From IMG/VR virus record IMGVR_UViG_2531839667_000012: DNA of 32,021 nucleotides; one strand, 5' to 3'. The position numbers were made by a program, and so were the translations under genes. The first letter of the stretch is position 1, and each line of letters opens with the position of its first letter. Below, one piece after another: positions 1 to 25,602 of the stretch. Under the pieces are notes generated by a model. That model worked only from the letters and a program-made list of their open reading frames with translations. It did not search any database and was not told where the DNA came from. The stretch comes from a virus (lineage: Duplodnaviria > Heunggongvirae > Uroviricota > Caudoviricetes).

Positions 1-1200
1 ATGCTGACCGATACCAAGCTGAAAAACCTCAAAGCGCGGGAAAAACTTTATAAAGTTGCAGACCGTGATGGGCTGTATGTAACCGTATCTCCCAAGGGAT
101 TGGTGACGTTTCGCTATGACTATCGAATCAATGGTCGTCGTGAAACGTTAACGATTGGTCGCTATGGTGACGGTATTTCTCTGGCGCAGGCGCGCGAAAA
201 ATTAGTGGAAGCTAAAAAACGCGTAAATGCAGGAATATCGCCCGCTGGAGAGAAGCGTGACGGTAAAACAAAGCGAAAAGAAGAAAAGACACTCCACGAT
301 TTTACCGTCAGCTACATGAAACACACCCGGCTGGCGGACAGCACAAGGGCGATGAAGCAAAGCATTATCGACAGAGACATCACCCCAGTATGGGGGCGCA
401 AGCTGCTGTCAGAGATAACCCCCTCTCTTCTACGTGAGTATTGCGACAAGATAAAAGCGCGTGGTGCGCCAGCGACAGCGATTCAGGTTCGCAATATCGT
501 TAGCGCGGTGTTTAAGTTCGCCGCGCTTCACGGCAACTATTACCCCAATCCTGCCGAAGAGGTTTTACCGGCTTCAATTGCGACATTCGAAGCGCGCGAC
601 AGAGCGCTCAAACCAGAAGAGATAGGCTGGTTTTTCAATCAGCTTGAACAAACGGGTACATTACCCACCATCAAGCTGGCCATTAAATTGGTTTTATTAA
701 CGATGGTGCGTAAAAGCGAACTGCTGAACGCGCCGTGGGGCGAGGTTAATTTTAATGCCTGCCTTTGGACGATTGACGCTAGCCGTATGAAGGGATCACG
801 GGATCATAATGTTTACCTGTCCCGGCAGGCGCAGGACATTCTGATTGCTCTAAAAATGTGCGCAGGAAGCAGTGATTGGGTTTTACCTTCATGCAATCAG
901 TCATCGCATAAGACCATGTCGGCGGCGACCTTAAACCGGGTCATTAATCTTACGGTTAAGCAGGCGCAGGAACGGGGGATCAGGCTGGCGTCGTTTTCCG
1001 TTCACGATATGCGCCGAACAGCATCGACGTTATTACATGAGGCTGGGTTTAATTCCGACTGGATAGAAAAATGCCTCGCGCACGAGGAAAGAAGCGTCAG
1101 AGCCGTTTATAACAAAGCGGAATACGCAGAACAGCGCCGCGACATGTTGCAGCAATGGGCGGATATGATTGATGGATGGATCAAGCAATACCGCCCGTGA
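1..1200 (+). CDS. int: Tyrosine site-specific integrase, P4/CP4-57 type (N-terminal arm-binding domain, HxxR box, C-terminal catalytic Tyr region)
   Basis: 399 aa ORF; N-terminus LTDTKLKNLK...GLYVTVSPKG typical of P4-family integrases; HDMRRTAST and AVYNKAEY motifs near the C-terminus. ATG is at window position 1, so the true start could lie upstream. Confidence 0.9.
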   Translation: MLTDTKLKNLKAREKLYKVADRDGLYVTVSPKGLVTFRYDYRINGRRETLTIGRYGDGISLAQAREKLVEAKKRVNAGISPAGEKRDGKTKRKEEKTLHDFTVSYMKHTRLADSTRAMKQSIIDRDITPVWGRKLLSEITPSLLREYCDKIKARGAPATAIQVRNIVSAVFKFAALHGNYYPNPAEEVLPASIATFEARDRALKPEEIGWFFNQLEQTGTLPTIKLAIKLVLLTMVRKSELLNAPWGEVNFNACLWTIDASRMKGSRDHNVYLSRQAQDILIALKMCAGSSDWVLPSCNQSSHKTMSAATLNRVINLTVKQAQERGIRLASFSVHDMRRTASTLLHEAGFNSDWIEKCLAHEERSVRAVYNKAEYAEQRRDMLQQWADMIDGWIKQYRP

Positions 1201-1203
1201 GTG

Positions 1204-1470
1204 TTATGCCGGGATTTTGGTGCCAGAGCGCTTTGGGGCTTTGGCCAGATTCTTCTGTACCGCGTTATCAGTAGGGTGATAATTATTTTCCTGCCGTGCC
1301 TTGAGCCAGCGTTCCACTTCCTCTTTGTCCCACGCGACGGCGCGCTTTGTCAGCGCAAAACGCTTGGGAAACAGGCCTTTTTGTTCCAACGCATAAATCG
1401 TACTTTCAGAGAGTGGCACCATCTGTAAAAGCACGTTTTTTCTAATGGCAATTTTCATTGTTTTCCCCAT
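1204..1470 (-). CDS. alpA: AlpA/Vis-family small DNA-binding protein (excisionase-like regulator)
   Basis: 88 aa ORF with LSESTIYALEQKGLFPKRFALTKRAVAWDKEEVERWL, matching the AlpA/Vis pattern; convergent with int, stops 3 bp apart. Start may instead be the ATG at 1458 (GGGGA upstream). Confidence 0.8.
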   Translation of the reverse strand: MGKTMKIAIRKNVLLQMVPLSESTIYALEQKGLFPKRFALTKRAVAWDKEEVERWLKARQENNYHPTDNAVQKNLAKAPKRSGTKIPA

Positions 1471-1819
1471 GCCGTTCGGCGTTCAGGTGTTGCCACTGCG
1501 CTGCAATCCGCTTCATCACCGCATTCCCCTCCGGGATCACCTCCTGCGGCTCTTTCATCAACATTACCCGCCCCCGGATAACGATCAGAGCCTGTTCCAG
1601 CAGGTCATAGTCCAGATAACAGAGGTCGGGAATATCCAGTTGCCACACGTAGCCATTCCATGCTGAAAGCAGCACTTGCGCGGCGGCGCGTCCACCGCTG
1701 GTTTCTGTGAGCGCAACGTCGACAAGGGCATTGACAGCAAGGCGGTATTCCTCCGGTGTTACGCAAAGTCTTTGCCGTTGGGTTTCTTGTGTTGCCAGAG
1801 CCTTAAATATTTCGTTCAT
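1442..1819 (-). CDS. Hypothetical protein, downstream of primase in the same operon
   Basis: 125 aa ORF, backbone-like composition, tightly packed between primase stop (1829) and alpA; no motif recognised. Confidence 0.5.
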   Translation of the reverse strand: MNEIFKALATQETQRQRLCVTPEEYRLAVNALVDVALTETSGGRAAAQVLLSAWNGYVWQLDIPDLCYLDYDLLEQALIVIRGRVMLMKEPQEVIPEGNAVMKRIAAQWQHLNAERHGENNENCH

Positions 1820-1828
1820 AACATTTCC

Positions 1829-4483
1829 TTATCGTTGAAAAACCCAGCACTTCACCGTCGCCGGGCGGCGCGATGCGGCTGGGTAACGGCGGTTAAATTC
1901 GGCGTTAATGCCGCTGTTAACCGTTCTGACTTCAATAAACTTGTGGGTACGGCTGGTTTTTAGCACTCGCTTCAAATCGCTGACCGGCGGGATCTGCTGG
2001 CGGCGTTCGGTAGCCAGTTGAATAAAGTGGTTAAGGTTGACGGCGATAAGCTGTTCATCGCGCGAGTGGTTAAGCTGCGGTTCGTCGTCGCCATCGAGGA
2101 AGTCGAAAATATCCCAGAACTCCTGCACCAGAGGATGATCGGCGCTGATGGCCTGCTGGCGCTCCAGACTGAGGCGGATAAACATTTCTCTGGTTGCCTG
2201 TAGCTGCTCCTTCGTGACCGGAATAACCAGCGCCAGCGCGTCGAGCAGCGCCATAAGCTGGGCGTGGTTTTTAATGATGCGGATATGGCGAATATCGGGG
2301 TGGGCGTGAAGCTGCTGCTCGTATAGCGGGATCTGCCGGTTGACGCACTCCAGCACGGCCTGTTCCGCCAGCGCTGCCTTCAGCATAAAGCCGGAAAGCT
2401 GTTCCACCGGCAGGCGTTCGAGCTGCTCGGCAGCGACCTTGGTCTGAGTATTCTGGCCGCTGCGGTCGGTGTACAGGTGAATAATACGTTCCAGCACCGG
2501 GTTAGAGGCGCTGACGTCGGCGTTTTGCGCAATCACAATCGCGCCCCGGAACGGAGGTTCATAGGTCTCGTTACCGCTGTTACGCAGACCGCGAGACCGC
2601 ACTGACCGCCCGTTGTAGGCGGTTTTTAGCTCTTCCCAATCAAAGCCGCGTTGCTTTGCACCCTCCTGATTACGGTCACCCTCGATCAGCACCACCGGCA
2701 TGTTCGCCACCTGCGCAAAGTTGCGCGCGCGGGCGGCCAGCGTTGATTTAGACGGATCGAAACCTTCATAGTCGCGTCGGCCTAACAGCTTCCAGAGAAA
2801 CTCTATCAGCGTGGTTTTGCCGCTGCCGGGTTCGCCAACGATTTCCAGAAACGGAAAGCTCTTGTGCTTGTCGCGGATCTGTTCGGCAAACATCGTCCCA
2901 AACCAGAACGCCAGCGCCACAAAGCCCTTTGCGCCAAACGCCTGCCAGAGTAGCTGGGGCCACTGGCTGTCCATCTGTTTTAAATTGTTGTTCAGCGTCA
3001 GGCTGACCGACTGGTTCAGGCTTTTAAGGCTGAGTTTGCCCATGTCGAAGAAGTCTTCTTCGTTGAGTGTGTACAGCCGACCATCGCGAACGGCCAGATC
3101 GTTGAACACGTAAGCGCGGTATTCTTTGCTGTAGCCGATAAAATCAGTGGTCTGGACAGTTTTGATTTTGGGAAGCTGCTTGAGCAGCAACTTATCTAAC
3201 TGCTGACTGGTGCCGGTGAAGATGCCGCCCTGCGCGATATGCAGCAGGCGCTTTTTGAATTCTGAGCCGCTGGAAAGTTGGGAGCCGGTGAAGGTGTTTT
3301 TTATCGGCGGCGTGTCGTCCGGGAAGTTAATGCGAAAGTAATACCAGCTTTCGTCGGTAATGGTGTTGGCCTGATAGTAGAGGGCGGTCGGGTAGCAGTT
3401 GGCGATCTCCACCACGGCGGACGACTCTTTCAGCGCCTTCTGTTTCAGCTCTTCTTCGCTCAGGTCGTCATTGGAGAATGAGATGCTTTCATGCACCCGC
3501 ATATAGCGGTCAATATCCAGCTTGAACCAGAACAGGCGGCTGTCAAACTCGAAGTGGAACTCTTTACGCTCTGTCTGTTCGTGCATCAGCAGGGCTTTGG
3601 CGGCGGGAGAGGTGGCGATCAGCAGAGAGCCGTAGTAGCGGTATTTCTTCACCAGCTCCGGGTTAAGCCGGTCGCGCTGGTGCAAATCGTTCCAGTCCAG
3701 CTTGCTGCGGGAATGCGGCGTCTGTGCGGCGGCTGCGCTCCAGCCTTCGTCCCGGCTGCGCTTTACCCATCGCCGGGTATAGCTCATGCCCGCCTTGTCG
3801 TTATCCAGCGCCCAGACCAGTAAAGGGCGCTTTTTATCCACGAACAGCGCGGCCAGTTGACTTAACGCCTGCGCCGGATAGTTGTTGCAGGTCATCAGGG
3901 AAACGGCGGCGATGCCGTGGTGATGCAAGGCGATAGCGTCAAAAATGCCTTCAACCAGCCAGATCTCCTGTTGTTCCTCCAGTTTCAGCGTTGGCAATTG
4001 CCACCATAGCCCGCTGTAAGCGCCGTGAAAGTTGGCTTTGCGATCGCCGAAACGTTGTGGACGGTCAACGATCCGCTCCCACCACACGCCGTCAGCCAGC
4101 GGGAAACGTACCGTCGCTGAACCGATATCACGCCGTGGGTCGTAGTAGTTCTCTTGAGTGTAACAGTCACGGATCAGCGAAAGGTCAAAGCCGCGCATCT
4201 CGCGCAGGTAGGCATCGGCGGCGGCCTGTGGGTTTTCCGGGGTTGGGGGATATCTGTCTGACCAGCTTTCAAACAGATCCGGGTACATATCTTTGATGTG
4301 GATTTCGGCATTGCATTTATTCAGGCGACCGCAGCGCAATACCCACGGGCTGATGGCATTGGTGTACAGCTCTTTTTTCTGGCAGTCCGGGCAGATGCCC
4401 TGCCGCAGCCAGTCGCCCTGTTCTTTAAAGGAAAAGTCGGCCAGCAGTCGCCGCGTAATTTCCTGATGAAGTTGTGGTTGCAT
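1829..4483 (-). CDS. Primase-helicase (N-terminal zinc finger, DnaG-like toprim motifs, C-terminal P-loop NTPase), P4 alpha-like in function
   Basis: 884 aa ORF; CPDC...C cysteine cluster near N-terminus; LVEGIFDAIAL and WALDNDKAG toprim-like motifs; Walker A GEPGSGKTT; AAAGG SD about 8 nt upstream of the ATG at 4483. Confidence 0.85.
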   Translation of the reverse strand: MQPQLHQEITRRLLADFSFKEQGDWLRQGICPDCQKKELYTNAISPWVLRCGRLNKCNAEIHIKDMYPDLFESWSDRYPPTPENPQAAADAYLREMRGFDLSLIRDCYTQENYYDPRRDIGSATVRFPLADGVWWERIVDRPQRFGDRKANFHGAYSGLWWQLPTLKLEEQQEIWLVEGIFDAIALHHHGIAAVSLMTCNNYPAQALSQLAALFVDKKRPLLVWALDNDKAGMSYTRRWVKRSRDEGWSAAAAQTPHSRSKLDWNDLHQRDRLNPELVKKYRYYGSLLIATSPAAKALLMHEQTERKEFHFEFDSRLFWFKLDIDRYMRVHESISFSNDDLSEEELKQKALKESSAVVEIANCYPTALYYQANTITDESWYYFRINFPDDTPPIKNTFTGSQLSSGSEFKKRLLHIAQGGIFTGTSQQLDKLLLKQLPKIKTVQTTDFIGYSKEYRAYVFNDLAVRDGRLYTLNEEDFFDMGKLSLKSLNQSVSLTLNNNLKQMDSQWPQLLWQAFGAKGFVALAFWFGTMFAEQIRDKHKSFPFLEIVGEPGSGKTTLIEFLWKLLGRRDYEGFDPSKSTLAARARNFAQVANMPVVLIEGDRNQEGAKQRGFDWEELKTAYNGRSVRSRGLRNSGNETYEPPFRGAIVIAQNADVSASNPVLERIIHLYTDRSGQNTQTKVAAEQLERLPVEQLSGFMLKAALAEQAVLECVNRQIPLYEQQLHAHPDIRHIRIIKNHAQLMALLDALALVIPVTKEQLQATREMFIRLSLERQQAISADHPLVQEFWDIFDFLDGDDEPQLNHSRDEQLIAVNLNHFIQLATERRQQIPPVSDLKRVLKTSRTHKFIEVRTVNSGINAEFNRRYPAASRRPATVKCWVFQR

Positions 4484-4571
4484 TGCCAGTACCTTTATTC
4501 AGGTAATACTTACCCGTCGCATAGACACGTTGTTTATGCGTTGTGGTTGTGAGTCTTTTATTTACTGAGCG

Positions 4572-4802
4572 TTACGCGATTTTCTGTTTTTGCAGAAATT
4601 GCCCGCGTGTGGATAGTGGTATGTGTATCTTAGGATTCGGGCAACCGCTCGGTACCACCGTTCCCATCACGGTTTCCATTGCGATAAATGAAAACGAACA
4701 GTTAACGTTTTTGCACTGGTAATAGAGCTTACGTACCAGCGGTGACATATATTCGCTGCTGCGAATTATCGCCTTACCGTCGCAGTGTGGGCATTTCATC
4801 AT
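4572..4802 (-). CDS. ogr: Ogr/Delta-family zinc-finger late transcription activator
   Basis: CPHCDGKA...YYQCKNVNCSFSF matches the Ogr C-x2-C...C-x4-C pattern; ORF track begins at a GTG (4820), but an ATG at 4802 with AAGGAG upstream is the more likely start. Confidence 0.85.
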   Translation of the reverse strand: MMKCPHCDGKAIIRSSEYMSPLVRKLYYQCKNVNCSFSFIAMETVMGTVVPSGCPNPKIHIPLSTRGQFLQKQKIA

Positions 4803-4838
4803 GTCCGATCTCCTTACCACTTTTAACTAACTGAAACA

Positions 4839-5045
4839 CTAACGCTTTTCGTTAACGGACTGACGAAATAGTGTGATGCCGTTCAAAAAAATGATTCTTG
4901 CCATGCTGGACATCGAACGGTTCTGATCCAGCGCTAATGCTTCCAGTTCCGCGATTTCAGCGGGGAGCAGGCGCATTGCCACCGGTTTGTTCGACATCAC
5001 CCCGCGAGGTGCTCGTGAGCGTAAGACGTTCTCATTTGTTTTCAT
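4839..5045 (-). CDS. Small ribbon-helix-helix (CopG/Arc-like) regulator, first gene of the leftward operon (Cox/Apl-position analogue)
   Basis: 68 aa ORF; KPVAMRLLPAEIAELEALALDQNRSMSSMARIIF fits an RHH beta-strand plus two helices; divergent from the XRE gene; start may be the internal ATG at 4997. Confidence 0.55.
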   Translation of the reverse strand: MKTNENVLRSRAPRGVMSNKPVAMRLLPAEIAELEALALDQNRSMSSMARIIFLNGITLFRQSVNEKR

Positions 5046-5054
5046 GGTGGTATA

Positions 5055-5077
5055 TTGTGGTTATTAACATTACACAA
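5055..5077. promoter_or_regulatory. Inverted repeat TTGTG-N13-CACAA in the 55-bp divergent intergenic region; candidate operator of the switch
   Basis: Sequence ttgtggttattaacattacacaa lies between the divergent RHH (minus) and XRE (plus) genes. Confidence 0.35.
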
Positions 5078-5100
5078 AGCGTATAGGAAAAATATTCCCT

Positions 5101-5466
5101 ATGTCAACCGAGAAACAGGAAATATTTTACATTATTGGGGCTAGGTTGCGAGAAGAACGTGAGCGACTTGAGAAGAGCCAGAAATTTATGGCTGAGGCAC
5201 TTGGGGCGGATATCAAAACATGGAACAACTATGAGCGGGGGGCATCGGTGCCTGATGCTCATAAATTAACCATTATAGCGGCAGTGGGTGTAGACGTTCT
5301 GTATGTTCTGACTGGCAACCGCACGCCTGTAGTTACGTTGTCCAGTAAAGAGAGTGTGTTGGTCGAAAATTACCGTTCTGCTACGCCAGAACACCAGTCC
5401 ACCCTTGACACGGTTAGCGCTGCGCTTGCGCAACCGGGTGTAGGGAAGAAAGCTGGAGGGGCGTAA
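5101..5466 (+). CDS. XRE-family helix-turn-helix regulator (candidate immunity repressor / operon regulator)
   Basis: 121 aa; N-terminal IGARLREERERLEKSQKFMAEALGADIKTWNNYERG is an HTH_XRE/Cro-C1 pattern; AGGAAA upstream; stops 5 bp before the next gene. Confidence 0.8.
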   Translation: MSTEKQEIFYIIGARLREERERLEKSQKFMAEALGADIKTWNNYERGASVPDAHKLTIIAAVGVDVLYVLTGNRTPVVTLSSKESVLVENYRSATPEHQSTLDTVSAALAQPGVGKKAGGA

Positions 5467-5470
5467 TTTT

Positions 5471-5905
5471 ATGTTTAATACAGTATCTCTTATTATTGTT
5501 GTGATTTTGCTATGTGCTGTCGTTTCAGCTCTTATTACTCAGAAGAGAGAAAAGAAAAAAGGGAGCGTAGATAAAGTTAGTGATGAAATTTTACGTATCA
5601 GGTCTCTTGGGAAAAAACAACCGCTTTATTATTCTAACGCAACCACAAGATATGAAGAAATACCGCCGTCTGTTCAAAAAAATAGAAAAATTAATATACT
5701 GAAAATAGGAAAAGTAAAATATATCGCTTTCAGTTACATAGATAGTAAAGGTGATTTTACTCACCGTGAGGTGGATGTTTCATCTATAGATAATGAATAT
5801 TTACAAGGGTATTGCCACTTAGCTAAAGAGTATAGAACATTTCGCCTTGATAGGATTCAGGGGGATGTTATTTGTAGAGATACAGGGGAAGTTATTTTAA
5901 ATTAA
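5471..5905 (+). CDS. Membrane-anchored WYL-domain protein (N-terminal TM helix, C-terminal WYL-like ligand-binding domain)
   Basis: 144 aa; hydrophobic N-terminus VSLIIVVILLCAVVSALI followed by KREKKK; C-terminal YIAFSYIDSKGDFTHREVDVSSIDNEYLQGYCHLAKEYRTFRLDRIQ resembles the WYL signature; strongly AT-rich. Confidence 0.6.
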   Translation: MFNTVSLIIVVILLCAVVSALITQKREKKKGSVDKVSDEILRIRSLGKKQPLYYSNATTRYEEIPPSVQKNRKINILKIGKVKYIAFSYIDSKGDFTHREVDVSSIDNEYLQGYCHLAKEYRTFRLDRIQGDVICRDTGEVILN

Positions 5906-5929
5906 CGATAAATATTAAGTGAGGATGTT

Positions 5930-6331
5930 TTGAATACATATAATTTATTTATTAGTCATTCATGGAAATATAATGATACATATGAATCATTGGTACGTCT
6001 TTTAAAAGGAAGAGGATATTTTGATTTTAAAAATTACTCAGTACCAAGAATAGATCCTATCATTGGTGCTAATAGCCATTCAGCTTTATATTCAGCAATT
6101 CAAAATCAGATGCGACCGTCTCAGGTAGTTTTGATTTTAGCCGGTGTATATGCATCATATAGTACTTGGATTGATGCAGAAATAAGGATAGCCAAGGATT
6201 GGAAAAAGCCAATTATCGCTATTGAACCTTGGGGATCTGAGAGGACATCCAAGGTAGTAAAAGATGCAGCGAACAGAATTGTAAAATGGAACTCAGATAG
6301 TATTGTTAAAGCAATTAGAGAGTTGGCATAA
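5930..6331 (+). CDS. Minimal TIR-like domain protein (predicted NAD+-processing signal generator)
   Basis: 133 aa; begins LFISHSWKY (TIR betaA-like) and contains YASYSTWIDAEI, resembling the TIR SxWxxxE catalytic-glutamate motif; TTG start with GAGGA upstream; AT-rich. Confidence 0.6.
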   Translation: MNTYNLFISHSWKYNDTYESLVRLLKGRGYFDFKNYSVPRIDPIIGANSHSALYSAIQNQMRPSQVVLILAGVYASYSTWIDAEIRIAKDWKKPIIAIEPWGSERTSKVVKDAANRIVKWNSDSIVKAIRELA

Positions 6332-6341
6332 GGATTAACTG

Positions 6342-7307
6342 ATGAGAAAGGCTCTGTTTGTTGGGATTAATGAATATGCGGAAATTTCTCATCTTGCGGG
6401 ATGTGAAAATGATGCTATGAAGATGTCTGCGGCATTGTCCAGACATGCGGATGGGCGTCCTAATTTTGAAGGGAAAGATTTGATTCACCGTGAGCAGATG
6501 CCTGTAACTAAGGTATTGCTTGAGCAAGAAATTCAGACTTTATTCAGTGGTTCAGCAGATATAGCTTTATTATTCTTTGCTGGGCATGGGTATTTTGATG
6601 AAAATATAGATGAAGGGGTTATCATTCCTCATGATTACTCTTCTCATCAAAGCAATGGTGTGAGAATCAGTGATATCATGCTATGGGCATCGAGAGCAAC
6701 CAATATTAAAAATAAAATAATAATACTAGATTGCTGTCAGGCGGGCGCTGCCGGACAAGTCAGGAACTTAAGAGGTGGAGACTCCATTCTTGCTGATGGC
6801 ACAACAATATTAACCGCATGTCAGCGTGATGAATATGCGCAAGAGCAGGATGGTCAGGGTATTTTTACAGCCTTAATGTTGGAGGCTTTATATGGCGCAG
6901 GTGCTAATATATTGGGGCATGTAACACCCGGTAGTTTGTATAGCTTTGTTGACCAAGCATTAGGTGCATGGGAGCAGCGACCGGTATTTAAAACAAATGT
7001 ATCCAGATTCGTAGTGCTAAGAGAAGTCGGGCCAAGAATCCCGTTAGAAACATTAAGGCAATTACCTGATTGGTTTGCTAGTGGTAGTGCTGAATATCCT
7101 CTTGATCCTAGTTACGAGCCTGATTCAGGAGCACCAAATGAGGATAATGTAAGGATATTTCGGCAATTACAAGCCTGTAATCGTCATGGCCTTGTTGAAC
7201 CTGTTAACGCAGAACATATGTATTATGCAGCGATGAATTCAACTGCATGTAGATTGACCGCTTTGGGAGCCTATTATAGAAAACTGGCAGAGAAAAGGCG
7301 TTTTTGA
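6342..7307 (+). CDS. Caspase-like protease (peptidase C14 / metacaspase-like His-Cys dyad) with C-terminal domain of unknown function
   Basis: 321 aa; KALFVGINEY start, FFAGHGYF (His-Gly) and IILDCCQAGAAG (catalytic Cys) in caspase order and spacing; AAGGA SD 7 nt upstream; AT-rich. Confidence 0.8.
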   Translation: MRKALFVGINEYAEISHLAGCENDAMKMSAALSRHADGRPNFEGKDLIHREQMPVTKVLLEQEIQTLFSGSADIALLFFAGHGYFDENIDEGVIIPHDYSSHQSNGVRISDIMLWASRATNIKNKIIILDCCQAGAAGQVRNLRGGDSILADGTTILTACQRDEYAQEQDGQGIFTALMLEALYGAGANILGHVTPGSLYSFVDQALGAWEQRPVFKTNVSRFVVLREVGPRIPLETLRQLPDWFASGSAEYPLDPSYEPDSGAPNEDNVRIFRQLQACNRHGLVEPVNAEHMYYAAMNSTACRLTALGAYYRKLAEKRRF

Positions 7308-7332
7308 TTAATCGGGTGTACGGGGGTTGGTT

Positions 7333-8436
7333 TCAATCCAGCCCTAGCTCACACTCCACCGCCGTCCCATACCCACTGCTGTTATCCAACGTATGCACGC
7401 ACCGCGTAATCACCCACGCGGTGCCGTCAATCTCCGCCTTAAACCCCTTCACCTGCACCGACAGTTCCGGGAACAAATCGGGCCGTCCGCGCGCAAGATT
7501 CAGGCTGAACGTTGCCGCGCCGCGCTGTAGCTGCTCCCACGCGCTTTTTGCCGCTCTGTAGGCGTTATTTTTGTTGGCATAGGTGTGGCGCAGCACCTTG
7601 ATATTTCCCTCTTCGCCAACCATCACGTTATCAGCATTGAATGAGGCGTCTGACGGCGGTGATTCTGTTGGTTGCGTTTGTGGACGGTTTTTCCGTGTCT
7701 TGCGCTTCATGTCAGTGGACTGCTTTTTTGCCTGCCGTGTATCCAGCCAGTAGGCCGTCACACCGGTATACGCCTCCCTGTCCGCGATGCTGAACCGGTG
7801 GCTGTCGCCGTCCTCGCGGGTAATGGTTGCGACCGGCAGCGGTTTGCCGCTGGCACTTTTACCGGAACCTGTCGGCATTAGCAGCAGAGCATCATTTTTC
7901 ACGCAGGCGATAGCGCCGTGCAGTTGCGCCAGCCGGGTCAGGAAGGAGGCATCGGATTCGTTAGTCTGGTCAACGTGCTCAATGGCGATCCCAGCCAGCT
8001 CGCCGCTGACGGTTGATTCCAGCTTATGACGCGCCGCCACGGTTTGCACAATCGCGCCCAGCGTCACATCATGGTAGCTCTGTTCCCGTTTAACGTTCAG
8101 CGAATCGCGGAAATCGGCGCTGCGGGCGCGGAGGCTGAGTACGTCCGGTGCGCCGCTGTGCTCCAGTTCGTCCACTGTGAAGACATTCTGGTGCATCACG
8201 CCGTCACCCTTCCAGCCCAGAGAAACCGTTAGCTTTTCGCCCTTTGCCGGAAACGCCAGCAGGCCGTCGCTGTCGTCCAGTTCGAGCTGCAGTTCGTCGG
8301 CCTCAAAGCCCCGGTTGTCGGTGATACGCAGGCTGATTAAGCGGTTGTCCAGATTCCGCGTAATGTCCTTACCGTTCAGCACCACGCTGTACTCCGGCTG
8401 CGGCTGGGCGTTTAAGAGTGCGTTTAACATCGTCAT
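7333..8436 (-). CDS. D: P2 gpD-like tail protein (late control gene D)
   Basis: 367 aa, sequence and position (after U, before ogr) match P2 gene D. Confidence 0.85.
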   Translation of the reverse strand: MTMLNALLNAQPQPEYSVVLNGKDITRNLDNRLISLRITDNRGFEADELQLELDDSDGLLAFPAKGEKLTVSLGWKGDGVMHQNVFTVDELEHSGAPDVLSLRARSADFRDSLNVKREQSYHDVTLGAIVQTVAARHKLESTVSGELAGIAIEHVDQTNESDASFLTRLAQLHGAIACVKNDALLLMPTGSGKSASGKPLPVATITREDGDSHRFSIADREAYTGVTAYWLDTRQAKKQSTDMKRKTRKNRPQTQPTESPPSDASFNADNVMVGEEGNIKVLRHTYANKNNAYRAAKSAWEQLQRGAATFSLNLARGRPDLFPELSVQVKGFKAEIDGTAWVITRCVHTLDNSSGYGTAVECELGLD

Positions 8437-8861
8437 AGTCCGTCTACCATCGTGATGATGTCGCCCAGCAAGCCACCCAGCTTCGGCGGATCGACACGTT
8501 TTAACGCCAGCGTAAACTCAATGCGCCGGGCCGCACCGTCGCGAAAAAAGACGCTCCGGGTGACGTTCAGACTCTCAATCACAAACCAGCCATGCAGCGA
8601 TCCGGTGCCTTCAATCAGCGGCCAAGCCATCCCCTGATCGGCCATCTTTCGCAGGAAAAACAGGGTAAATCGCCCGCCGGTCAGTTCCGGCAACAGCACG
8701 CCGTTTAGCGTAATGGTTTCGTCACCCACGCCGATAAACTGGCTGGCCGGACGTAGCCCCACGCGGGAACTGGCAGGATGCCGCCACGCTACGGCGTGCT
8801 GCATATCCTGATAGGGCAGGGTTTTCAGGCTGAAGACGAACAGCCCCAGTACCATCATCAT
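8433..8861 (-). CDS. U: P2 gpU-like tail protein
   Basis: Start taken at ATG ATG ATG (8861) preceded by AAGGAGG that overlaps the T stop; the longer ORF in the track overlaps T and is unlikely. Confidence 0.85.
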   Translation of the reverse strand: MMMVLGLFVFSLKTLPYQDMQHAVAWRHPASSRVGLRPASQFIGVGDETITLNGVLLPELTGGRFTLFFLRKMADQGMAWPLIEGTGSLHGWFVIESLNVTRSVFFRDGAARRIEFTLALKRVDPPKLGGLLGDIITMVDGL

Positions 8862-13927: not shown

Positions 13928-13950
13928 CTTGTAACCACTGGCACTACAAG
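13928..13950 (-). promoter_or_regulatory. Ogr-box dyad (CTTGTA-N11-TACAAG) of the late promoter for the FI operon
   Basis: cttgtaaccactggcactacaag about 80 bp upstream of the FI start; same 23-bp pattern occurs at three other late-operon heads. Confidence 0.6.
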
Positions 13951-13962
13951 CAGAAGCGGTTT

Positions 13963-14721
13963 TTAATTCAGGATAATCAATTCTGATGTGGCGCTGGCTG
14001 GCTTTCCACCTACGGTATAGCGAATCCCTACCGTTGAGAATGTCAGGCCGTGGAAGATATCGCGCATTTCCGGGATGTCGTTAACCGAGATAATCATCCG
14101 GCCCTGCATGGTGCGCGCCAGCTCTGCCATACGCTGGTACTGCTCAAGGCCAAATGGTACGCCGTAGCCTTCGGTTTTCCAGTATGGAGGGTCGCAGTAG
14201 AACAGGGTATGCGGGCGGTCATAGCGGCGAATACAGTCGGCCCAGTCCAGATTTTCAATGCAGACGCGCGCCAGCCGCAGATGGGCGGCGGATAAATCCT
14301 CTTCCATACGCAGCAGGTTCAGGCGCGGCGGTGAGGTGGTAGCGGTACCGAACGTGCGGCTTTCCACTTTGCCGCCGAATGCCAGCTTTTGCAGATAGTA
14401 GAAGCGCGCCGCGCGCTGGATATCGGTCAGCGTTTCTTCCGGGGTGATCTGGAGCCAGCGGTACATTTCGCGGCTGACCAGCGACCATTTAAACTGGCGG
14501 ACAAACTCTTCTAAATGGTGCTGAAGTACGCGGTAGAGGTTGGTAACGTCACCGTTGATATCATTCAGCACCTCGGCCTGTGCGGGCTGTTTCATAAAGA
14601 ACAACGCCGCCGCCCCGCAGAACGGTTCAACGTAGCAGCGGTGTTTGGGAAACAGTGGCAGAATGTGTTTTGCCAGCCTGCGCTTACCGCCGATCCACGG
14701 AATAACGGGTAACGTATTCAT
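13963..14721 (-). CDS. dam: DNA adenine N6-methyltransferase, Dam/D12 class
   Basis: 252 aa; motif I EPFCGAAALFF and motif IV FYCDPPYW; located between tail-fibre assembly gene G and FI. Confidence 0.85.
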   Translation of the reverse strand: MNTLPVIPWIGGKRRLAKHILPLFPKHRCYVEPFCGAAALFFMKQPAQAEVLNDINGDVTNLYRVLQHHLEEFVRQFKWSLVSREMYRWLQITPEETLTDIQRAARFYYLQKLAFGGKVESRTFGTATTSPPRLNLLRMEEDLSAAHLRLARVCIENLDWADCIRRYDRPHTLFYCDPPYWKTEGYGVPFGLEQYQRMAELARTMQGRMIISVNDIPEMRDIFHGLTFSTVGIRYTVGGKPASATSELIILN

Positions 14722-15880: not shown

Positions 15881-17760
15881 GCCAGCCTCACGATATAGTT
15901 GAAAGCGATATTTTTAACGGTGTTTTCGGCGTTCCCGGCGGCGTTCACCGTAATAGTGTGGCTGTGGGAACCCAAGGCGATAGTGTGGTTATGCGCGCCG
16001 ATAGTCAGCGAATGAGTATGAGCGCCGATGGCTACTGTGTGAGTATGGACACCGTCTGTACTGGTTCTGAATTTGTAGTTATCCCAGTCTGTGTCTGCAG
16101 ACCCCTGATTATTACGGGTACTGTCGAAGTAACCGTGACGCCCACCGCTGGCTTCACCCCATCCGCTGTCGTGGTTGTGAGCACCGGCTGACGCTGTTGA
16201 TTTTGTCCCGTAGTCAAACGCGCTGGTATTTTTAGTACCCAAATCAGTGGAACTGGCGGTTTTAGTGCCTAAATCCGTGTTAGCGGCGCTGGCGGTGTGA
16301 CCATGAGATTTAACGCCATCCTGTTCCTGAGACAGTATCGTGCGTCCGCTGGCGGGCTTCCCCTTGATTGTCCAGCCTCGCATATCCGGGATTACACCGG
16401 AGGGGTAAGCGATTGCCAGTTTAGGGTAGGCGGTTTTATTGAAGGACTGACCGACCATCAGTGCATAGCCGCTAGGGATGGCATCGGATGGCCATGGAAT
16501 GGGAGCGCCTGCTGGGTAGAGTTCTTCTGGTAAGTTTCTGCTATTAAAATCTCGCCGCCAGCCGGGAGAGTATTGTGCTCCGTGATCGATATAGATAAAT
16601 TGCGCGTTGGCTATGCCTTTGGTCGATGTAGAGGGGGTAGTAATGCGGATTGTTTTTGCCGACTCAATACCCATGACCTCAATGACAGCGCCAGCCAGTT
16701 GAATATCGCCACAGCCTGTATCAGAAATGACTTTATTCGAGGCATAACTCCATGAACCTTTACACATCCAATAGGGGGTACTGAAAGCTCCCTGAACACT
16801 CAGCCAGCTTAGAAATTCAGTCGTAGTCCATGAGGCATCATTTCCACCAATAGACAGACTGCCGCTGAAGGCACGGCAGCGGCTATTGGCATTATCCATT
16901 ACTATTTTGACAGCCTTCGGTGTTGCGGCCATCGCCTCACTAACGTTATTGGTTTCGCTGTTAAGCTGGATTATCCCTTTGCGCATGGTGGTCGCATCCA
17001 GTGCGGTATATTTTCCATTAGCCAGATCGTAGGCCGCTTTCACGGCTTTAGGCGTGGCGGCCAGCGTTTCGCTGATACTGTCGATGGAGCTACTAAGCTG
17101 GACAATCCCTTTACGTGAGGTGGTGGCATCCAGTGCGGTATATTTTCCATTAGCCAGATCGTAGGCTGCTTTCACGGCTTTGGGCGTGGCGGCCAGTGTT
17201 TCGCTGATGCTGTTGGTCGCACTGCTTAATTGAGTAAAACCTTTGGCAGTTAACGTGGCGTCAGGATGGTTACGGGACTGCGCGTGGCGAGTCAGGCTTT
17301 CATCCACATACTGCCTCGTTGCCAACACTACGGCAGGGTCGATTTTCAGTTCCACGTTTTCCGTATGGGAGACAATCAACACCATGCGGATAATCTGCGT
17401 GCGACCCGAACCTTCGATTAGCTGCGGCTTGTAGGTTGGCGGGCAGTTGCCGACGGCAATCAGCCGGTCGTGCTCGTCGTACAGGCCAATTTCTCTGATC
17501 CACCATCCGCCTACGTCCTCCGGCAGCACCTGTTCGGCAATAATCTGGTTGGAGTTGTTAGGGTCAATACTGAGCGTATTCAGCGGTGCACGTCGACGTT
17601 CGTTGACTAGCCGGGTTTGACCGGTCTCCGGCGTTGGCAGGTTACCGTTTCCGTCGCCCACGGCCATTTGCGTCAGATGAAGAGGTGAACCCTGTGTGGT
17701 GGCGGTCGCCAGCGCGGATTCGCCAGTAGTGGTTAATAGCGTGAAATAGGTAGCGCTCAT
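15877..17760 (-). CDS. H: Tail fibre protein (P2 gpH-like N-terminus, divergent receptor-binding C-terminus with His-x-His repeats)
   Basis: 627 aa; N-terminal region and [37 protein letters not shown] repeats as I recall them in P2 H; C-terminus [33 protein letters not shown]. Confidence 0.9.
16862..17257. repeat. About three tandem copies of a 132-bp coding repeat inside the tail fibre gene
   Basis: Near-identical DNA blocks starting at about 16994 and 17126 (two full copies), with a diverged third copy at about 16862-16993; they encode the 44-aa protein repeat. Confidence 0.7.
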
Positions 17761-20221: not shown

Positions 20222-20265
20222 GCCGGAATCATTGGGATTCGCGGGCGAAGAGGGAAGGGCTAAGG

Positions 20266-20288
20266 CTTGTAGGATAATGGGCTACAAG
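20266..20288 (-). promoter_or_regulatory. Ogr-box dyad (CTTGTA-N11-TACAAG) of the late promoter for V-W-J-I-H-G
   Basis: cttgtaggataatgggctacaag located 45-67 bp upstream of the V start. Confidence 0.6.
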
Positions 20289-20312
20289 TAAAACGCCCCT
20301 GAGTAGGGGCGT
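20284..20312 (-). terminator. Rho-independent terminator downstream of hicB
   Basis: Hairpin ACGCCCCT-gagt-AGGGGCGT (8-9 bp stem, 4-nt loop) followed on the minus strand by TTTACTT. Confidence 0.6.
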
Positions 20313-20327
20313 TGAACGAAAAAGAGC

Positions 20328-20663
20328 TTAACCGTGCGCAGCCTTCATCAGTGTATCGTTAATCCACTGGTTAACGCTTTTACCGGAGACTTCTGCCGCA
20401 ACGTTAATGGCAGAGTGAATTTCAGGTGGAATACGCAGGCTGATTTTTCCGCTGGCCGGACGCAACGGCTCCCGGCCCCGTTCCTCGCAGTAAGCCAGAT
20501 AGTCGTCTACCGCCTCTTCAAACGCTTTACGCAGATCGGCAACATTATCGGCATGAAAGCCAATGACATCCCGAATGCCTGCAACGTGACCAACAATGCA
20601 TTGATCTTCATCGCTGTATTCAATTTTTGCGGCATAGCCTCTATATGTCATGGTATTCATCAT
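20328..20663 (-). CDS. hicB: HicB-family antitoxin (RNase H-like fold N-domain plus C-terminal RHH DNA-binding domain)
   Basis: 111 aa; YRGYAAKIEYSDEDQCIVGHVAGIRDVIGFHADNVADLRKAFEEAVDDYL and C-terminal KISLRIPPEIHSAINVAA RHH-like segment; overlaps hicA by 4 nt. Confidence 0.85.
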   Translation of the reverse strand: MMNTMTYRGYAAKIEYSDEDQCIVGHVAGIRDVIGFHADNVADLRKAFEEAVDDYLAYCEERGREPLRPASGKISLRIPPEIHSAINVAAEVSGKSVNQWINDTLMKAAHG

Positions 20664-20923
20664 GGTGTTACCCCTACAGCTTCAAGGAATGTTCTGGCAT
20701 CGCGAACCTGATAGGCTTTCGCTTCTTTTTCCGGGTGTGGACGATGAAATGAAGCCACAACCTGATTAATTTCAAACCTGACGCGGGAACCGTTTCCTTC
20801 CGTAGCAATAGCCCCCAAAGCAATAAATAAGGCTTCTATTTTTCGCCATTCCAGCGTGACAGGTGTTGGCGTAGAAAAAACAGCTTGTAAGGTTTTTTTA
20901 TGTTTGGCGCTTAACGTATTCAT
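20660..20923 (-). CDS. hicA: HicA-family mRNA interferase toxin
   Basis: 87 aa; GNGSRVRFEINQVVASFHRPHP resembles E. coli HicA ANGSNHLKLRFHGRRSVMPRHP. Confidence 0.8.
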   Translation of the reverse strand: MNTLSAKHKKTLQAVFSTPTPVTLEWRKIEALFIALGAIATEGNGSRVRFEINQVVASFHRPHPEKEAKAYQVRDARTFLEAVGVTP

Positions 20924-20972
20924 ACAGGGTATTTTCCATAAGTTATTTTATTCTTCCGCCAAGATATAATGA

Positions 20973-20996
20973 TGATATCATTTTTTGATATCATTT
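20973..20996. promoter_or_regulatory. Two copies of palindrome TGATATCA(T) upstream of hicA; candidate HicB operator / hicAB promoter
   Basis: atgatatcat at 20973-20982 and tgatatcat at 20988-20996 in an AT-rich stretch between the S start and hicA start. Confidence 0.5.
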
Positions 20997-21442
20997 CAAG
21001 TCAGGAAGTGAACGATTAGCGCCTCTATCTTTCGCACATCCTCCGCCGAAACCCCCAGCAACTGCCTTTGTGCGTAATCCACCTCCAACCCGTAGCGATT
21101 TACCCGATCGCGCAGGCCATACTGATGAACGGCGGCCATATGTCGAACGCTGCTGAGAAACGAAATGGTTGCTCCCTGCCCATCTCCTTTTCCTTTCATA
21201 TAGCGTGCGGTACGCAGCTTACGGAACATCTGGCGGCGGATCTTTCCTTTTTTACTGCGTAGCTGGGGCTTACGGGGGGCGAACGATGAGCCGTCCGGGT
21301 TTTTCTGCGCGGCTATCCGCTGGCTTTGTGACTGGCGCAGGCTGCGGGCGATTTCCCGCGCCAGTTGGGTTCGGCTTGCCGGGGAGAGCTTTACGAGCAG
21401 GCCATCGGCCCAGCGGTGGAGTTGTTGCAGGTCTTCGCTCAT
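20996..21442 (-). CDS. S: Tail completion protein (P2 gpS-like)
   Basis: 148 aa; position after R; basic central region. Confidence 0.85.
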   Translation of the reverse strand: MSEDLQQLHRWADGLLVKLSPASRTQLAREIARSLRQSQSQRIAAQKNPDGSSFAPRKPQLRSKKGKIRRQMFRKLRTARYMKGKGDGQGATISFLSSVRHMAAVHQYGLRDRVNRYGLEVDYAQRQLLGVSAEDVRKIEALIVHFLT

Positions 21443-23976: not shown

Positions 23977-23999
23977 CTTGTAACTGAGGGCAGTACAAG
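23977..23999 (-). promoter_or_regulatory. Ogr-box dyad (CTTGTA-N11-TACAAG) for a late promoter heading the X-lysis-R-S segment
   Basis: cttgtaactgagggcagtacaag about 75-95 bp upstream of the X start. Confidence 0.6.
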
Positions 24000-24018: not shown

Positions 24019-24339
24019 CTATGCCTCGTCGCTGTCGGTATTGATGATTTTCAGTTCAGCGGACTTCTGGAGCTGGATCAGCGCCGGAAGCAGAAGCGCG
24101 GTAGCCGACAGGCCATGCCCTAGCTGGCACAGGCTTTCAGCGGAGAATTCCAGCACGTTGCTGTCGGCAAAGGAGACGAAGGTTTTACCCAGAAAATGCA
24201 GGCCGTGACATAGTCCGGCGTAGCACTCTTCGCTGCTGTTGGCCAGTAGCAGAGTATCGTCGGCGTTCAGGTGTGAAATATCCATCTTGCGGATCGCGTC
24301 CGCCAGTTCAGAGGACAGAATATTGGTTTCAGGCACCAT
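24019..24339 (-). CDS. Hypothetical protein
   Basis: 106 aa ORF, backbone-like GC, overlaps the upstream 68-aa ORF by 11 nt; no motif recognised. Confidence 0.4.
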   Translation of the reverse strand: MVPETNILSSELADAIRKMDISHLNADDTLLLANSSEECYAGLCHGLHFLGKTFVSFADSNVLEFSAESLCQLGHGLSATALLLPALIQLQKSAELKIINTDSDEA

Positions 24340-24535: not shown

Positions 24536-24635
24536 AGCATTAGCCTCTTTAATGTTGTGGTCAGAGGCCCGTTGGTGTTGGTAGCACCTGCGGGCTTCGT
24601 TCGTTTAAGGGTTGCAAAACATCACGTAATTGCGA

Positions 24636-24676
24636 TGTAATTACAACTACATCATTCTAAGGATTTTGTAATTACA
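24636..24676. promoter_or_regulatory. Two copies of the perfect 10-bp palindrome TGTAATTACA (24636-24645 and 24667-24676); candidate operators in a divergent promoter region
   Basis: Second copy ends immediately before the ATG of the Arc-like gene; an additional half-site-like GTAATTG at 24626-24632. Confidence 0.55.
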
Positions 24677-24847
24677 ATGTCAAGTGAAAAGGCTAAAACA
24701 GATCAGTACCAACTTCGTCTTGCTCATGAATTTAGAAAGCAGCTTGAAGAACAGGCTCGTAAAGATGGAGATACCTCTCTCGCAACATGGATAAAACGCG
24801 TTTTGCGTAAGGAACTTCAGTCACGAGGTATTGAACCCAAAGGATAA
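24677..24847 (+). CDS. Arc/MetJ-type ribbon-helix-helix repressor (56 aa; below the ORF-track size cutoff)
   Basis: Hand translation MSSEKAKTDQYQLRLAHEFRKQLEEQARKDGDTSLATWIKRVLRKELQSRGIEPKG; QYQLRLAHEF...SLATWIKRVL resembles Arc beta-strand and helices. Confidence 0.6.
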   Translation: MSSEKAKTDQYQLRLAHEFRKQLEEQARKDGDTSLATWIKRVLRKELQSRGIEPKG

Positions 24848-24948
24848 TTACGGAGATATCAAGCAGCGCTAAGAAGTTAGGATTATTTGTTCAGCCCAGA
24901 TTAGTCGATATGCACTGATTAACTTAAACATTGTGTGTAGGAGGTGTT

Positions 24949-25602
24949 GTGGATATTGAATTTTTTCTTAAAGAGCGCACAAGATTCGTTACTTATTTCT
25001 ATGAAACGGCTGCTGCACCATTTGTTAACATCATGAATGATATTGAGAATGAAGTGGAACCTTATATTCAGCCGTATGGTGAGAGTGATGAACCAGCTTT
25101 TTTAGATGAATGGTTAGATGCAAAGTCGGGATTAGAAACCTGTGGGCACCATGCATTATCGATGCTTTCGTCTTCTCTTCAGTTGTACCTGAAGGCGTGG
25201 GTAGATCGCTTAGGATATCATAGCGTGAAATCTGATATAAATTTCAAGAAGGGTTGGTTTAATGGCTATCGTGAAATTTTCAACAAAATTGAGTTGGAAA
25301 TGGCAAAATGTCCTGCAAATTTGGAAATAATTGAACAAATTCCCTTGGTGAGAAATCGTGTCCAGCATCCTGAGGAACTTACCTCAATTAATATTTCTCA
25401 CTCAAAAAATGACTTGGAAAAATATCCTCGCCCATACTTTATTCAGGAGTGTGAGCTACTTTTGGCTTCCGAACAGGAAGAAAAATCGTGGTTATTCCCA
25501 CCTACAATATCCCCGACTAAAGAGAAAATATTCGAAGCTATCAGAAATGTTGAAATGCTGTGCTCTTGGTTAGAGTCTGAGTATTGGTCGGCTCTTGACT
25601 AA
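24949..25602 (+). CDS. Hypothetical protein, AT-rich cargo gene under the Arc-like regulator
   Basis: ORF in the track starts at TTG 24931; GTG 24949 follows a GGAGG SD (short spacing). About 217-223 aa; no motif recognised. Confidence 0.5.
   Translation: MDIEFFLKERTRFVTYFYETAAAPFVNIMNDIENEVEPYIQPYGESDEPAFLDEWLDAKSGLETCGHHALSMLSSSLQLYLKAWVDRLGYHSVKSDINFKKGWFNGYREIFNKIELEMAKCPANLEIIEQIPLVRNRVQHPEELTSINISHSKNDLEKYPRPYFIQECELLLASEQEEKSWLFPPTISPTKEKIFEAIRNVEMLCSWLESEYWSALD

Follow-up and report, generated by a model that had tools for sequence, protein, structure and literature searches.

Ralstonia phage RSY1 (Peduoviridae, Arsyunavirus; NC_025115; PMC5694545) is an isolated phage with P2-type late genes, whose early genes run from an Ogr homolog to a primase and an AlpA-type gene, and whose opposite-strand Arm-DNA-bind_3 integrase gene points its 5' end towards an attP near cos. 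In Pseudomonas phage phiCTX (Citexvirus; NC_003278), the order is D, reversed genes, an ogr-like gene, the primase gene (orf37), a DUF7673 gene (orf38), int, attP, cos and Q; TTGTA-N11-TACAA palindromes lie at the late promoters, and the cargo is the ctx toxin. Enterobacteria phage P2 (Peduovirus) has ogr after D, attP between ogr and int, and the rolling-circle initiator A. The satellite P4 has attP 5' of int, arm repeats on both arms and inside int, and a replication protein, alpha, which consists of a Zn-ribbon, a toprim primase and a P-loop helicase of D5/Cch-like fold. Among the epsilon15-like podophages (Uetakevirus: epsilon15, SPN1S, phiV10-like phages and vB_EcoP_ZX5), vB_EcoP_ZX5 uses the core attgagtgggaatgatt in the 3' end of guaA for integration, and the same 17-nt core was demonstrated by PCR and sequencing (PMC9782041).

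We analysed a stretch of 32,021 nt (the window), which spans exactly from the ATG of an integrase gene to the stop codon of a portal gene. The element is very probably a P2-like (Peduoviridae) prophage with a phiCTX/RSY1-type early region, located in E. coli at the guaA 3' end. We are likewise confident that positions 1-4483 belong to a single complete genome of a temperate phage, ~33 kb long, of which they form the integration and replication end. The element has a collinear late gene set, Ogr together with palindromes that are its putative sites, an orf37-type primase, and cos and attP beside Q. It shares the RSY1 arrangement described above. However, RSY1 comes from another host class, has more small early ORFs and no DUF7673 gene between its primase and AlpA, and its late genes show limited nucleotide similarity to the window; its integrase is 26% identical to that of the window and targets tRNA-Ser, not guaA. 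As in phiCTX, the early operon has an Ogr-like gene ahead of the primase gene, and int, attP and cos adjoin Q. On the other hand, phiCTX Int has an Arm-DNA-bind_2 domain, shows no detectable similarity to the window integrase and is encoded on the early-gene strand, with attP on the 3' side of the gene; tblastn detected no AlpA homolog in phiCTX, and the cargo there, the ctx toxin, is different. The int, alpA and primase genes make up the usual early module of one P2-like phage of the phiCTX/RSY1 type, and their combination is ordinary. The type is already known, and this lineage is without a sequenced isolate.

Attachment sites and extent of the element

With its ends set by the int ATG and the portal stop codon, the window just misses both att sites; att, cos and arm repeats beyond its ends were read from identical or 97% identical copies in E. 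coli genomes. In these genomes, the 14-nt core GAGTGGGAATGATT (guaA stop codon region) stands on either side of the element. [quoted passage not shown] In E. coli L725, whose RefSeq-annotated copy is 96-97% identical to the window, the att core stands on both sides of the entire int-to-Q element, between guaA and yfgI. In contigs 99.9-100% identical to the window ends, 224 nt separate guaA from int on the left and ~940 nt separate Q from yfgI on the right. K-12 has an empty, uninterrupted guaA-yfgI site. The host genes immediately past both ends leave no room for P2-type A/B genes beyond the window; according to the first-pass annotation, the presence of such genes there would have opposed a mosaic phage. 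Host-side features near the element differ among strains at two points; for example, an IS lies beside attR in L010.

No copy of the att core exists within the 32-kb window. The 88-nt spacer between the ogr and primase genes (4484-4571), where the first-pass annotation had proposed to look for a second att site, contains no core-like sequence (up to two mismatches to the 14-mer or three to the 17-mer). It has a hairpin at 4518-4540, which is terminator-like on the plus strand only. Exact copies of the arm-type repeat GACGGTAAA in the window are limited to an inverted pair inside the 5' part of int (259-309; 259-267 on the plus strand and 301-309 on the minus strand). Five further copies surround the att core just off the window, at -82 and -70 on the Q/cos side and at +141, +177 and +205 on the int side, and none were found elsewhere. 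As in P4, attP is 5' of int, and each arm as well as the int gene itself contains arm repeats. A cos-like sequence ~115-135 nt right of Q matches the phiCTX cohesive end at 13 of 13 positions, and cos and attP are close together beside Q, off the window, in contigs 99.9% identical to its right end. Between cos and attP there are AAAGGTAACC repeats, which are at most a candidate replication origin.

The first-pass annotation had offered two readings, a mosaic P2-like phage with an exchanged early/replication module or a degenerate P4-like satellite beside a helper prophage, and had named flanking att repeats as the test. Since these repeats flank the entire 33-kb element, with none inside the window, we chose a single mosaic phage and not the satellite. 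Positions 1200-32021 hold neither an att core nor an arm repeat, and the arm repeats of this integrase adjoin cos and Q at the far end. If int, alpA and the primase gene were a separate satellite, the rest of the element would be without an integrase and a replication gene, given that ORF, Pfam, PHROG and tblastn searches found a single integrase, a single replication gene and a single repressor in the window.

Integrase, AlpA and the primase-helicase

The integrase, AlpA and primase genes claimed for positions 1-4483 were recovered as ORFs at 1-1200 (plus strand), 1204-1470 and 1829-4483 (both minus strand), with another minus-strand ORF at 1442-1819. The first encodes a tyrosine integrase of the P4 (Arm-DNA-bind_3) family, as had been stated. 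It has the Pfam domain set of P4 Int (Arm-DNA-bind_3, Phage_int_M and Phage_integrase), to which it is 30% identical over the full length (E 8e-39), and differs in domain set from P2 Int, which has an Int_N domain. Its closest relatives are the integrases of epsilon15, SPN1S and vB_EcoP_ZX5 (60-62% identity; 60% for vB_EcoP_ZX5), and it falls in a guaA-specific subgroup, the core ATTGAGTGGGAATGATT being located in the 3' end of guaA at a distance of ~200 nt on the 5' side of int. The epsilon15-like podophages have the same guaA 3'-end core and an attP ~190-220 nt 5' of int. However, they are otherwise different phages of podovirus morphology, and no nucleotide similarity to them was found in window positions 1-8500. 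Because its closest relatives are these podophage integrases, an Arm-DNA-bind_3 integrase is not satellite-specific. The remark in the first-pass annotation that some P2-like phages use P4-type integrases is borne out by RSY1.

The 88-aa protein encoded at 1204-1470 is a small HTH protein of the AlpA/Vis type, again as proposed (Pfam Phage_AlpA, E 8e-13; 39% identity to P4 orf88/Vis and 41% to RSY1 ORF48). PHROG 66/2790, to which it belongs, is annotated as 'excisionase and transcriptional regulator', and alpA is the last gene in the early operon. This protein is likely an excisionase/directionality factor. Both it and the integrase are family-level homologs of P4 proteins (Vis and Int), which would suit a satellite; nevertheless, a P4-family integrase with AlpA/Vis does not define satellites, because many true phages share both genes.

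The sole replication gene, downstream of ogr, encodes an 884-aa protein of the phiCTX orf37 family (PHROG 1139, 1270 bits, full length). Residues 31-57 carry a CxxC...C-x5-C motif, residues 175-267 form a toprim domain and residues 550-557 are the Walker A motif GEPGSGKT. Full-length homologs are found in phiCTX (orf37, 48.7% identity), ESSI2_ev239 (gp29, 52%), Smp131 and RSY1 (ORF47), the last being the closest among the phage records searched (58%). An AlphaFold2 (AF2) model of the protein (pLDDT 85) matched the Cch helicase (5dgk, E 7e-15), SaPIbov1 Rep (8tch, E 2e-11) and DnaG primases (E 1e-5 to 6e-7) in Foldseek searches. By its motifs and predicted fold, the protein joins a Zn-ribbon and a DnaG-type toprim primase to a P-loop helicase of the Cch/SaPI-Rep/D5-like kind. 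It had been called P4-alpha-like, and the zinc-finger/toprim/P-loop architecture and the fold agree with this description, whereas family membership does not. BLASTP aligns the protein with P4 alpha at two motifs only, Walker A (E 0.011) and toprim (E 0.12). The Pfam domains of alpha (Zn_Ribbon_Prim, Toprim_3, D5_N, DUF5906 and Pox_D5) were not found in the window primase, whose sole Pfam domain is Toprim_2. The primase resembles P4 alpha in architecture and predicted fold only, and the modelled likeness to D5, Cch and SaPI Rep helicases reflects analogy or a remote relationship at superfamily level rather than membership of the family.

Directly downstream of the primase gene, the ORF at 1442-1819 encodes a DUF7673 protein to which no role is assigned (Pfam DUF7673, E 1.5e-17; PHROG 6694, E 3e-41). 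The gene is conserved in this position; the phiCTX orf38 homolog is also there (E 2e-8), and the related prophage in L018 has one as well. This primase-DUF7673 pair is ancestral to the phiCTX-type lineage across Proteobacteria.

Regulators, cargo and the late region

An Ogr/Delta-type zinc-finger late-gene activator is encoded at 4572-4820 on the minus strand (Pfam Ogr_Delta, E 1e-19; CX2CX22CX4C), with 41.5% identity to P2 Ogr, 31% to phiCTX orf34 and 32% to P4 Delta. The ogr gene sits in the leftward early operon, as in phiCTX, RSY1 and Smp131, whereas in P2 it follows D. The first gene of this operon (4839-5045, minus strand) encodes an Arc-like ribbon-helix-helix protein (PHROG 3431 'Arc-like repressor', E 4e-24; weak Pfam RHH_5), which from its homology and position probably plays the Cox/Apl/Cro role. 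Divergent to the operon is a gene for a cI/RstR-like HTH immunity repressor (5101-5466, plus strand; Pfam HTH_31 and HTH_19, NCBIfam phage_RstR and PHROG repressor families). [quoted passage not shown] The slot holds different genes in L725 and L018, and the cargo is a candidate defence island. The Arc-like gene, the repressor gene and the cargo (4839-7307) therefore lie between ogr and D (7333-8436). The P2-type late region does adjoin the early genes, as the first-pass annotation had it, but D and ogr are not neighbours. The relatives L018 and L019 keep the D-cargo-repressor-ogr-primase order at the prophage end.

The P2/phiCTX-type late region occupies 7333-32021, as identified by tblastn and the RefSeq annotation of the L725 copy. 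D, U, T, E, FII, FI, the tail fibre gene, I, J, W, V, S, R, the lysis genes, X, L, M, N and O are on the minus strand, P and Q are on the plus strand, and three small variable islands are included. In tblastn searches, 20 late ORFs match P2 in P2 order (32-62% identity) and 21 match phiCTX collinearly (34-65%). The element thus resembles P2 in its late-gene set and order from Q to D, its lysis and tail genes, its Ogr and the position of cos beside Q. In contrast, no window ORF matches P2 A, B, C, cox or int (tblastn, E <1e-3), consistent with the suggestion that the P2 integrase and A/B genes had been replaced, and attP is beside cos, not between ogr and int. Lacking A, B, the C/Cox switch and a P2-type Int, the element is not P2 sensu stricto (Peduovirus).

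Four exact copies of the palindrome CTTGTA-N11-TACAAG, each a putative Ogr site, were found in the window, against 0.03 expected. They lie upstream of FI (13928-13950), upstream of V (20266-20288), upstream of X and the lysis genes (23977-23999) and between the divergent O and P operons (29177-29199). phiCTX carries the same palindrome ahead of FI and in the P-O interval. There is none in P2, whose activator palindrome has N12 spacing, compared with TGT-N13-ACA here.

Alternative readings and proposed life cycle

A defective, fixed prophage remnant or tailocin-like element, with excision, replication and packaging lost, is very unlikely. The two strain-variable host-side features, including the IS next to attR in L010, could speak for such a remnant. 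However, intact ORFs are present for every expected function (capsid, terminase, portal, lysis, tail, int, xis-like, replication, repressor and ogr), and the two att cores are intact, as are the arm sites and cos. The exact integrase is found in 88 blocks of the genome collection and the exact portal in 379. Copies 96-100% identical are present in many assemblies, yet the element is carried by 4 of 5426 complete genomes, and this patchy spread fits a mobile element.

Alternatively, a resident P4-like satellite might recently have supplied a P2-like phage with int and alpA, or with int, alpA and the primase gene, as one block, since such satellites are common in E. coli and have the same integrase and AlpA families. 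This is highly improbable: the integrase is far closer to those of epsilon15-like phages with the same guaA core than to P4 Int, the primase-DUF7673 pair is ancestral to the lineage, and the primase-AlpA-integrase order already exists in Ralstonia phage RSY1.

A degenerate P4-like satellite (int, alpA and primase, with sid, psu and epsilon lost) in tandem beside a P2-type helper prophage is scarcely credible, although tandem satellite-helper arrangements are known and the replication protein is built like P4 alpha, with a related fold. The bona fide phages phiCTX, RSY1, Smp131 and ESSI2_ev239 encode orthologs of the primase, which has no significant similarity to alpha; the same gene order occurs in RSY1, an isolated phage; and window ORFs have no tblastn match to P4 sid and psu, as had been claimed, nor to epsilon, cI or alpha, with only ogr matching delta. 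We rejected a P4-like satellite, as the att cores bound 33 kb with a complete structural gene set, not a ~10-12-kb element without structural genes.

For a single P2-like phage, we propose the following life cycle. As the sequence context shows, the P4-family integrase recombines attP, located between the 5' end of int and the cos/portal side of the genome, with (ATT)GAGTGGGAATGATT, the core that overlaps the guaA stop codon, and it uses the GACGGTAAA sites on both arms. In the lysogen, the cI-like repressor and the defence cargo would be expressed rightward. Induction would switch on the leftward early operon, producing the Arc-like protein, Ogr, the primase-helicase, the DUF7673 protein and AlpA. 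The 884-aa protein would act as a self-contained initiator, primase and helicase, like P4 alpha and SaPI Rep; its homology and position suggest origin-dependent theta-type replication, which would replace the P2 A-protein rolling circle. On similar grounds, AlpA would serve as the excision directionality factor, and Ogr would bind and activate four late promoters through CTTGTA-N11-TACAAG. The mosaic very probably arose by module exchange among temperate phages and not from a P4 satellite, with a replication module common to phiCTX, RSY1 and Smp131 and an int/att module common to epsilon15-like podophages.

Gene organization of the window and its phage relatives

The window begins precisely with the integrase ATG at position 1 and ends with the last base of the portal gene's stop codon at 32021. 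The integrase gene (1-1200) lies on the plus strand and is followed on the minus strand by the genes for AlpA (1204-1470), a DUF7673 protein (1442-1819), an 884-aa toprim/P-loop protein (1829-4483), Ogr (4572-4820) and an Arc-like ribbon-helix-helix protein (4839-5045). [quoted passage not shown] Beyond D (7333-8436, minus strand) lies a full P2-type late region. The first-pass annotation called the left-end genes correctly, but 2.5 kb with the immunity switch and the cargo lie between ogr and D. The DUF7673 gene, whose end overlaps the AlpA start, always follows the primase gene: in L018 (a relative with an 82% identical primase), in L725 (an E. coli strain with a 96-97% identical prophage copy) and in phiCTX, where the homolog orf38 (E 2e-8) comes directly after the primase. 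No homology was found between the DUF7673 protein and gp28 of Escherichia phage ESSI2_ev239. The DUF7673 protein may be a replication accessory.

We compared all window ORFs with P2, phiCTX, P4 and ESSI2_ev239 by tblastn. In the late region, 20 ORFs have matches in P2 (32-62% identity) and 21 in phiCTX (34-65%), with conserved order in both cases. No window ORF matched P2 A, B, C, cox or int, or P4 sid, psu, epsilon, cI or alpha, and the absence of sid and psu noted earlier is thereby borne out. When 50,697 phage records were searched by megablast, positions 1-8500 had no match, and coverage of the late region did not exceed 5%, at about 73% identity. Nucleotide comparison with isolates being uninformative, we turned to protein searches. 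A Dam-like type II/orphan adenine methyltransferase gene (13963-14721; PADLOC MTase_II, E 2e-114) occupies the P2 Z/fun position between FI and the tail-fibre genes.

The guaA attachment site and the unit of recombination

An element 96-97% identical to the window prophage, with other cargo, is present in four complete E. coli genomes. In L725, it sits between guaA and yfgI, which are adjacent in K-12. When both L725 junctions are aligned to the K-12 empty site, host homology breaks off and picks up again at GAGTGGGAATGATT, which overlaps the guaA stop codon and exists once in K-12 and twice in L725. A repeat search on the L725 locus reported a weaker terminator-like repeat and not this 14-nt core. 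Contigs that match the window ends at 99.9-100% identity have one copy of the core 222 nt to the left of int and one about 837 nt to the right of the portal stop codon. The window itself holds no copy of the core with up to two mismatches. Its 17-nt form with up to three mismatches is found nowhere in the window, including 4484-4571, where a second att had been considered. ARAGORN found no tRNA or tmRNA within the window, and a tRNA gene as the att site was rejected in favour of the guaA 3' end. The complete genome CP148541.1 has an IS transposase gene immediately beyond the prophage, inserted between attR and yfgI (6883-8256 of locus L010).

The GACGGTAAA repeat has two copies on the side of cos and Q (the portal gene), at -82 and -70 from the core, three beside int, at +141, +177 and +205, and two within int (window 259 and 301); the 32 kb contain no others. 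This distribution is a classic arm-site layout, of the same kind as that annotated at the P4 attP. Because arm sites of the left-end integrase are also located at the far right end, the recombination unit is the entire 33-kb element. A cos-like sequence about 115-135 nt right of Q shows a 13/13 match to the phiCTX cohesive end, and the order is therefore like the int-attP-cos-Q order of phiCTX (PMC2771037). Every gene and site is intact and the near-identical copies have a patchy distribution, so it is unlikely that the element is a defective prophage remnant. Six AAAGGTAACC repeats, in both orientations, sit in AT-rich sequence that separates the cos-like site from attP (6300-6590 of the off-window locus L009, between cos and attR); the 32-kb window has none. 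These repeats may serve the primase-helicase as origin iterons or form an array bound by some other protein.

The integrase is 30% identical to P4 Int over its full length and shares its three Pfam domains, in contrast to phiCTX Int (Arm-DNA-bind_2) and P2 Int (Int_N). AlpA is 39% identical to P4 orf88. The nearest integrases in the phage records are those of epsilon15-like podophages (SPN1S, epsilon15, vB_EcoP_ZX5 and others), with 60-62% identity. For vB_EcoP_ZX5, PCR and sequencing placed integration at the guaA 3' end, with attgagtgggaatgatt as the core, 190 bp 5' of int (PMC9782041); this core is the same as that of the window prophage. Capture of the int module from a P4 satellite is thus unlikely, because the integrase is much closer to the podophage integrases than to P4 Int. 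As the shared core and the close integrases in epsilon15-like podophages show, this int/att module is common to unrelated temperate phages and does not mark a satellite. With the same guaA core in use by both, the element shows that integration modules are swapped between myophages and podophages.

The replication protein as part of the phage backbone

The replication protein matches PHROG 1139 over its entire length (1270 bits). It is 58% identical to ORF47 of Ralstonia phage RSY1, 52% to ESSI2_ev239 gp29, 48.7% to phiCTX orf37 and 46% to the primase-like protein of Smp131, all from P2-like phages. The family comprises at least 1934 proteins (E <= 1e-10) of a constant length of about 880-910 aa across Proteobacteria. 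In BLASTP, P4 alpha matches only the Walker A (E 0.011) and toprim (E 0.12) motifs, and the replication protein has none of alpha's Pfam domains (Zn_Ribbon_Prim, Toprim_3, D5_N, DUF5906 and Pox_D5). A sequence search against the PDB gave nothing meaningful, so a fold search was made with an AlphaFold2 model built from 30 homologs (mean pLDDT 85). Foldseek matched the SCCmec Cch helicase (E 7e-15), the SaPIbov1 Rep initiator-helicase (E 2e-11), PriRep1 (the SaPI5 primase-helicase) and D5/E5-type helicases, as well as the zinc-binding and RNA-polymerase domains of DnaG (E 6e-7 to 1e-5). By these matches to both helicases and DnaG, the protein is bifunctional, with a DnaG-type primase fused to an initiator-type helicase. 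Thus, the label 'P4-alpha-like' holds for the architecture but not for the sequence family.

The proposal that a degenerate P4-like satellite sits beside a P2-type helper prophage fails: it is contradicted by the att positions, the arm-site location and the orthology of the primase to phage genes, and it would leave the late region with no other integrase or replication gene. A single phage also agrees with known gene orders. In RSY1, an isolated and characterised P2-like phage with attP near cos (PMC5694545), the Ogr homolog is followed by the primase (ORF47), an AlpA-type gene (ORF48) and an opposite-strand Arm-DNA-bind_3 integrase. L018 keeps the order D-cargo (CBASS-like)-repressor-ogr-primase-DUF7673, whereas its terminal module and chromosomal site differ. 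L019, a Pseudoalteromonas relative, keeps D, ogr and the primase in this order at the prophage end. Together with phiCTX, these gene orders place the primase in the conserved phage backbone, with the integrase module and cargo as exchangeable parts. This organization is already known from phiCTX, RSY1 and Smp131 (PMC3931495), and the window prophage leaves current understanding unchanged. The integrase-AlpA-primase set is the standard early end of phiCTX/RSY1-type P2-like phages and a false-positive trap for programs that search for prophages and satellites. The label of P4-like satellite should not be given to an Arm-DNA-bind_3 integrase, AlpA and toprim/P-loop primase that lie beside P2 late genes.

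Late-gene control, cargo and lineage

By reading the intergenic sequences, we found an N13-spaced palindrome (TGT-N13-ACA). Its form CTTGTA-N11-TACAAG has four exact copies (0.03 expected by chance), upstream of FI (13928-13950), V (20266-20288) and X (23977-23999) and between the divergent O and P operons (29177-29199). The same palindrome exists in phiCTX upstream of FI and between P and O, but it is absent from P2, where the sites are spaced one base closer. The P2 consensus TGT-N12-ACA has three matches in the window, fewer than in shuffled sequences, and none in late intergenic regions. The four palindromes are likely Ogr sites, which points to phiCTX-type rather than P2-type regulation. 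The phiCTX-like palindromes and the missing P2 spacing also tie Ogr to its own late region. A promoter and terminator scan of 1-7400 gave promoter-like matches at chance level and was left out of the definition of the switch promoters.

From the observed gene content, homologies, att/arm/cos layout and empty site, we infer the following lifecycle. The cI-like repressor would maintain lysogeny and be co-transcribed with the cargo. A leftward early operon would express the Arc-like protein, Ogr, the primase-helicase, the DUF7673 protein and AlpA. The primase-helicase would start theta-type replication, with the six AAAGGTAACC repeats as a candidate origin; AlpA together with Int would direct excision, and Ogr would switch on the late operons.

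The three cargo genes (GC 35-40%) have the same orientation as the repressor gene. The genes for the short ThsB-like TIR protein (133 aa) and the caspase-like protease (321 aa) form a pair organized like the published type IV Thoeris system (bioRxiv 10.1101/2024.10.24.620036), and the WYL gene comes in addition. Between the repressor and D lies a slot that is a hotspot for cargo (window 5078-7336; 7344-9430 of L002, the L725 locus; L018 6902-8838). It holds a nucleoid-associated protein and a RelA/SpoT-like GTP pyrophosphokinase in L725, and SMODS and S_4TM (CBASS-like) in L018. The repressor operon carries exchangeable defence cargo.

The E. coli lineage of the window prophage is without a sequenced isolate. 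With a large terminase at most 64% identical to any of the 50,697 phage records, and with negligible nucleotide matches, the prophage is a new member of a known phage type and possibly a new genus. It may represent an undescribed enterobacterial Peduoviridae genus, which may combine P4-alpha-like primase-helicase (theta-type) replication, an Arc/cI switch and a guaA module borrowed from podophages. P4 targets the P2 repressor through its protein epsilon and is itself activated by Cox. As P2 C, Cox, A and B are missing, the prophage might be blind to P4-type satellite control, or exploited differently. The repressor-linked slot beside D would be a defence-gene hotspot apart from the known P2 hotspots. 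The joint reading, in which a new genus, an altered relation to P4 satellites and a new hotspot all hold, seems to us evenly balanced between right and wrong.

Three further segments do not align with the L725 prophage. The island ORFs at 20328-20663, 24019-24339, 24931-25602 and 25692-25967 have no PADLOC match. The first segment (16042-16955) is the tail-fibre tip. The second (20259-21034) is the V/S gap at the P2 orf30 position, where L725 has an abortive-infection gene, and the third (24571-25688) is a low-GC island between X and L, where L725 has a RelE/ParE toxin-antitoxin pair.
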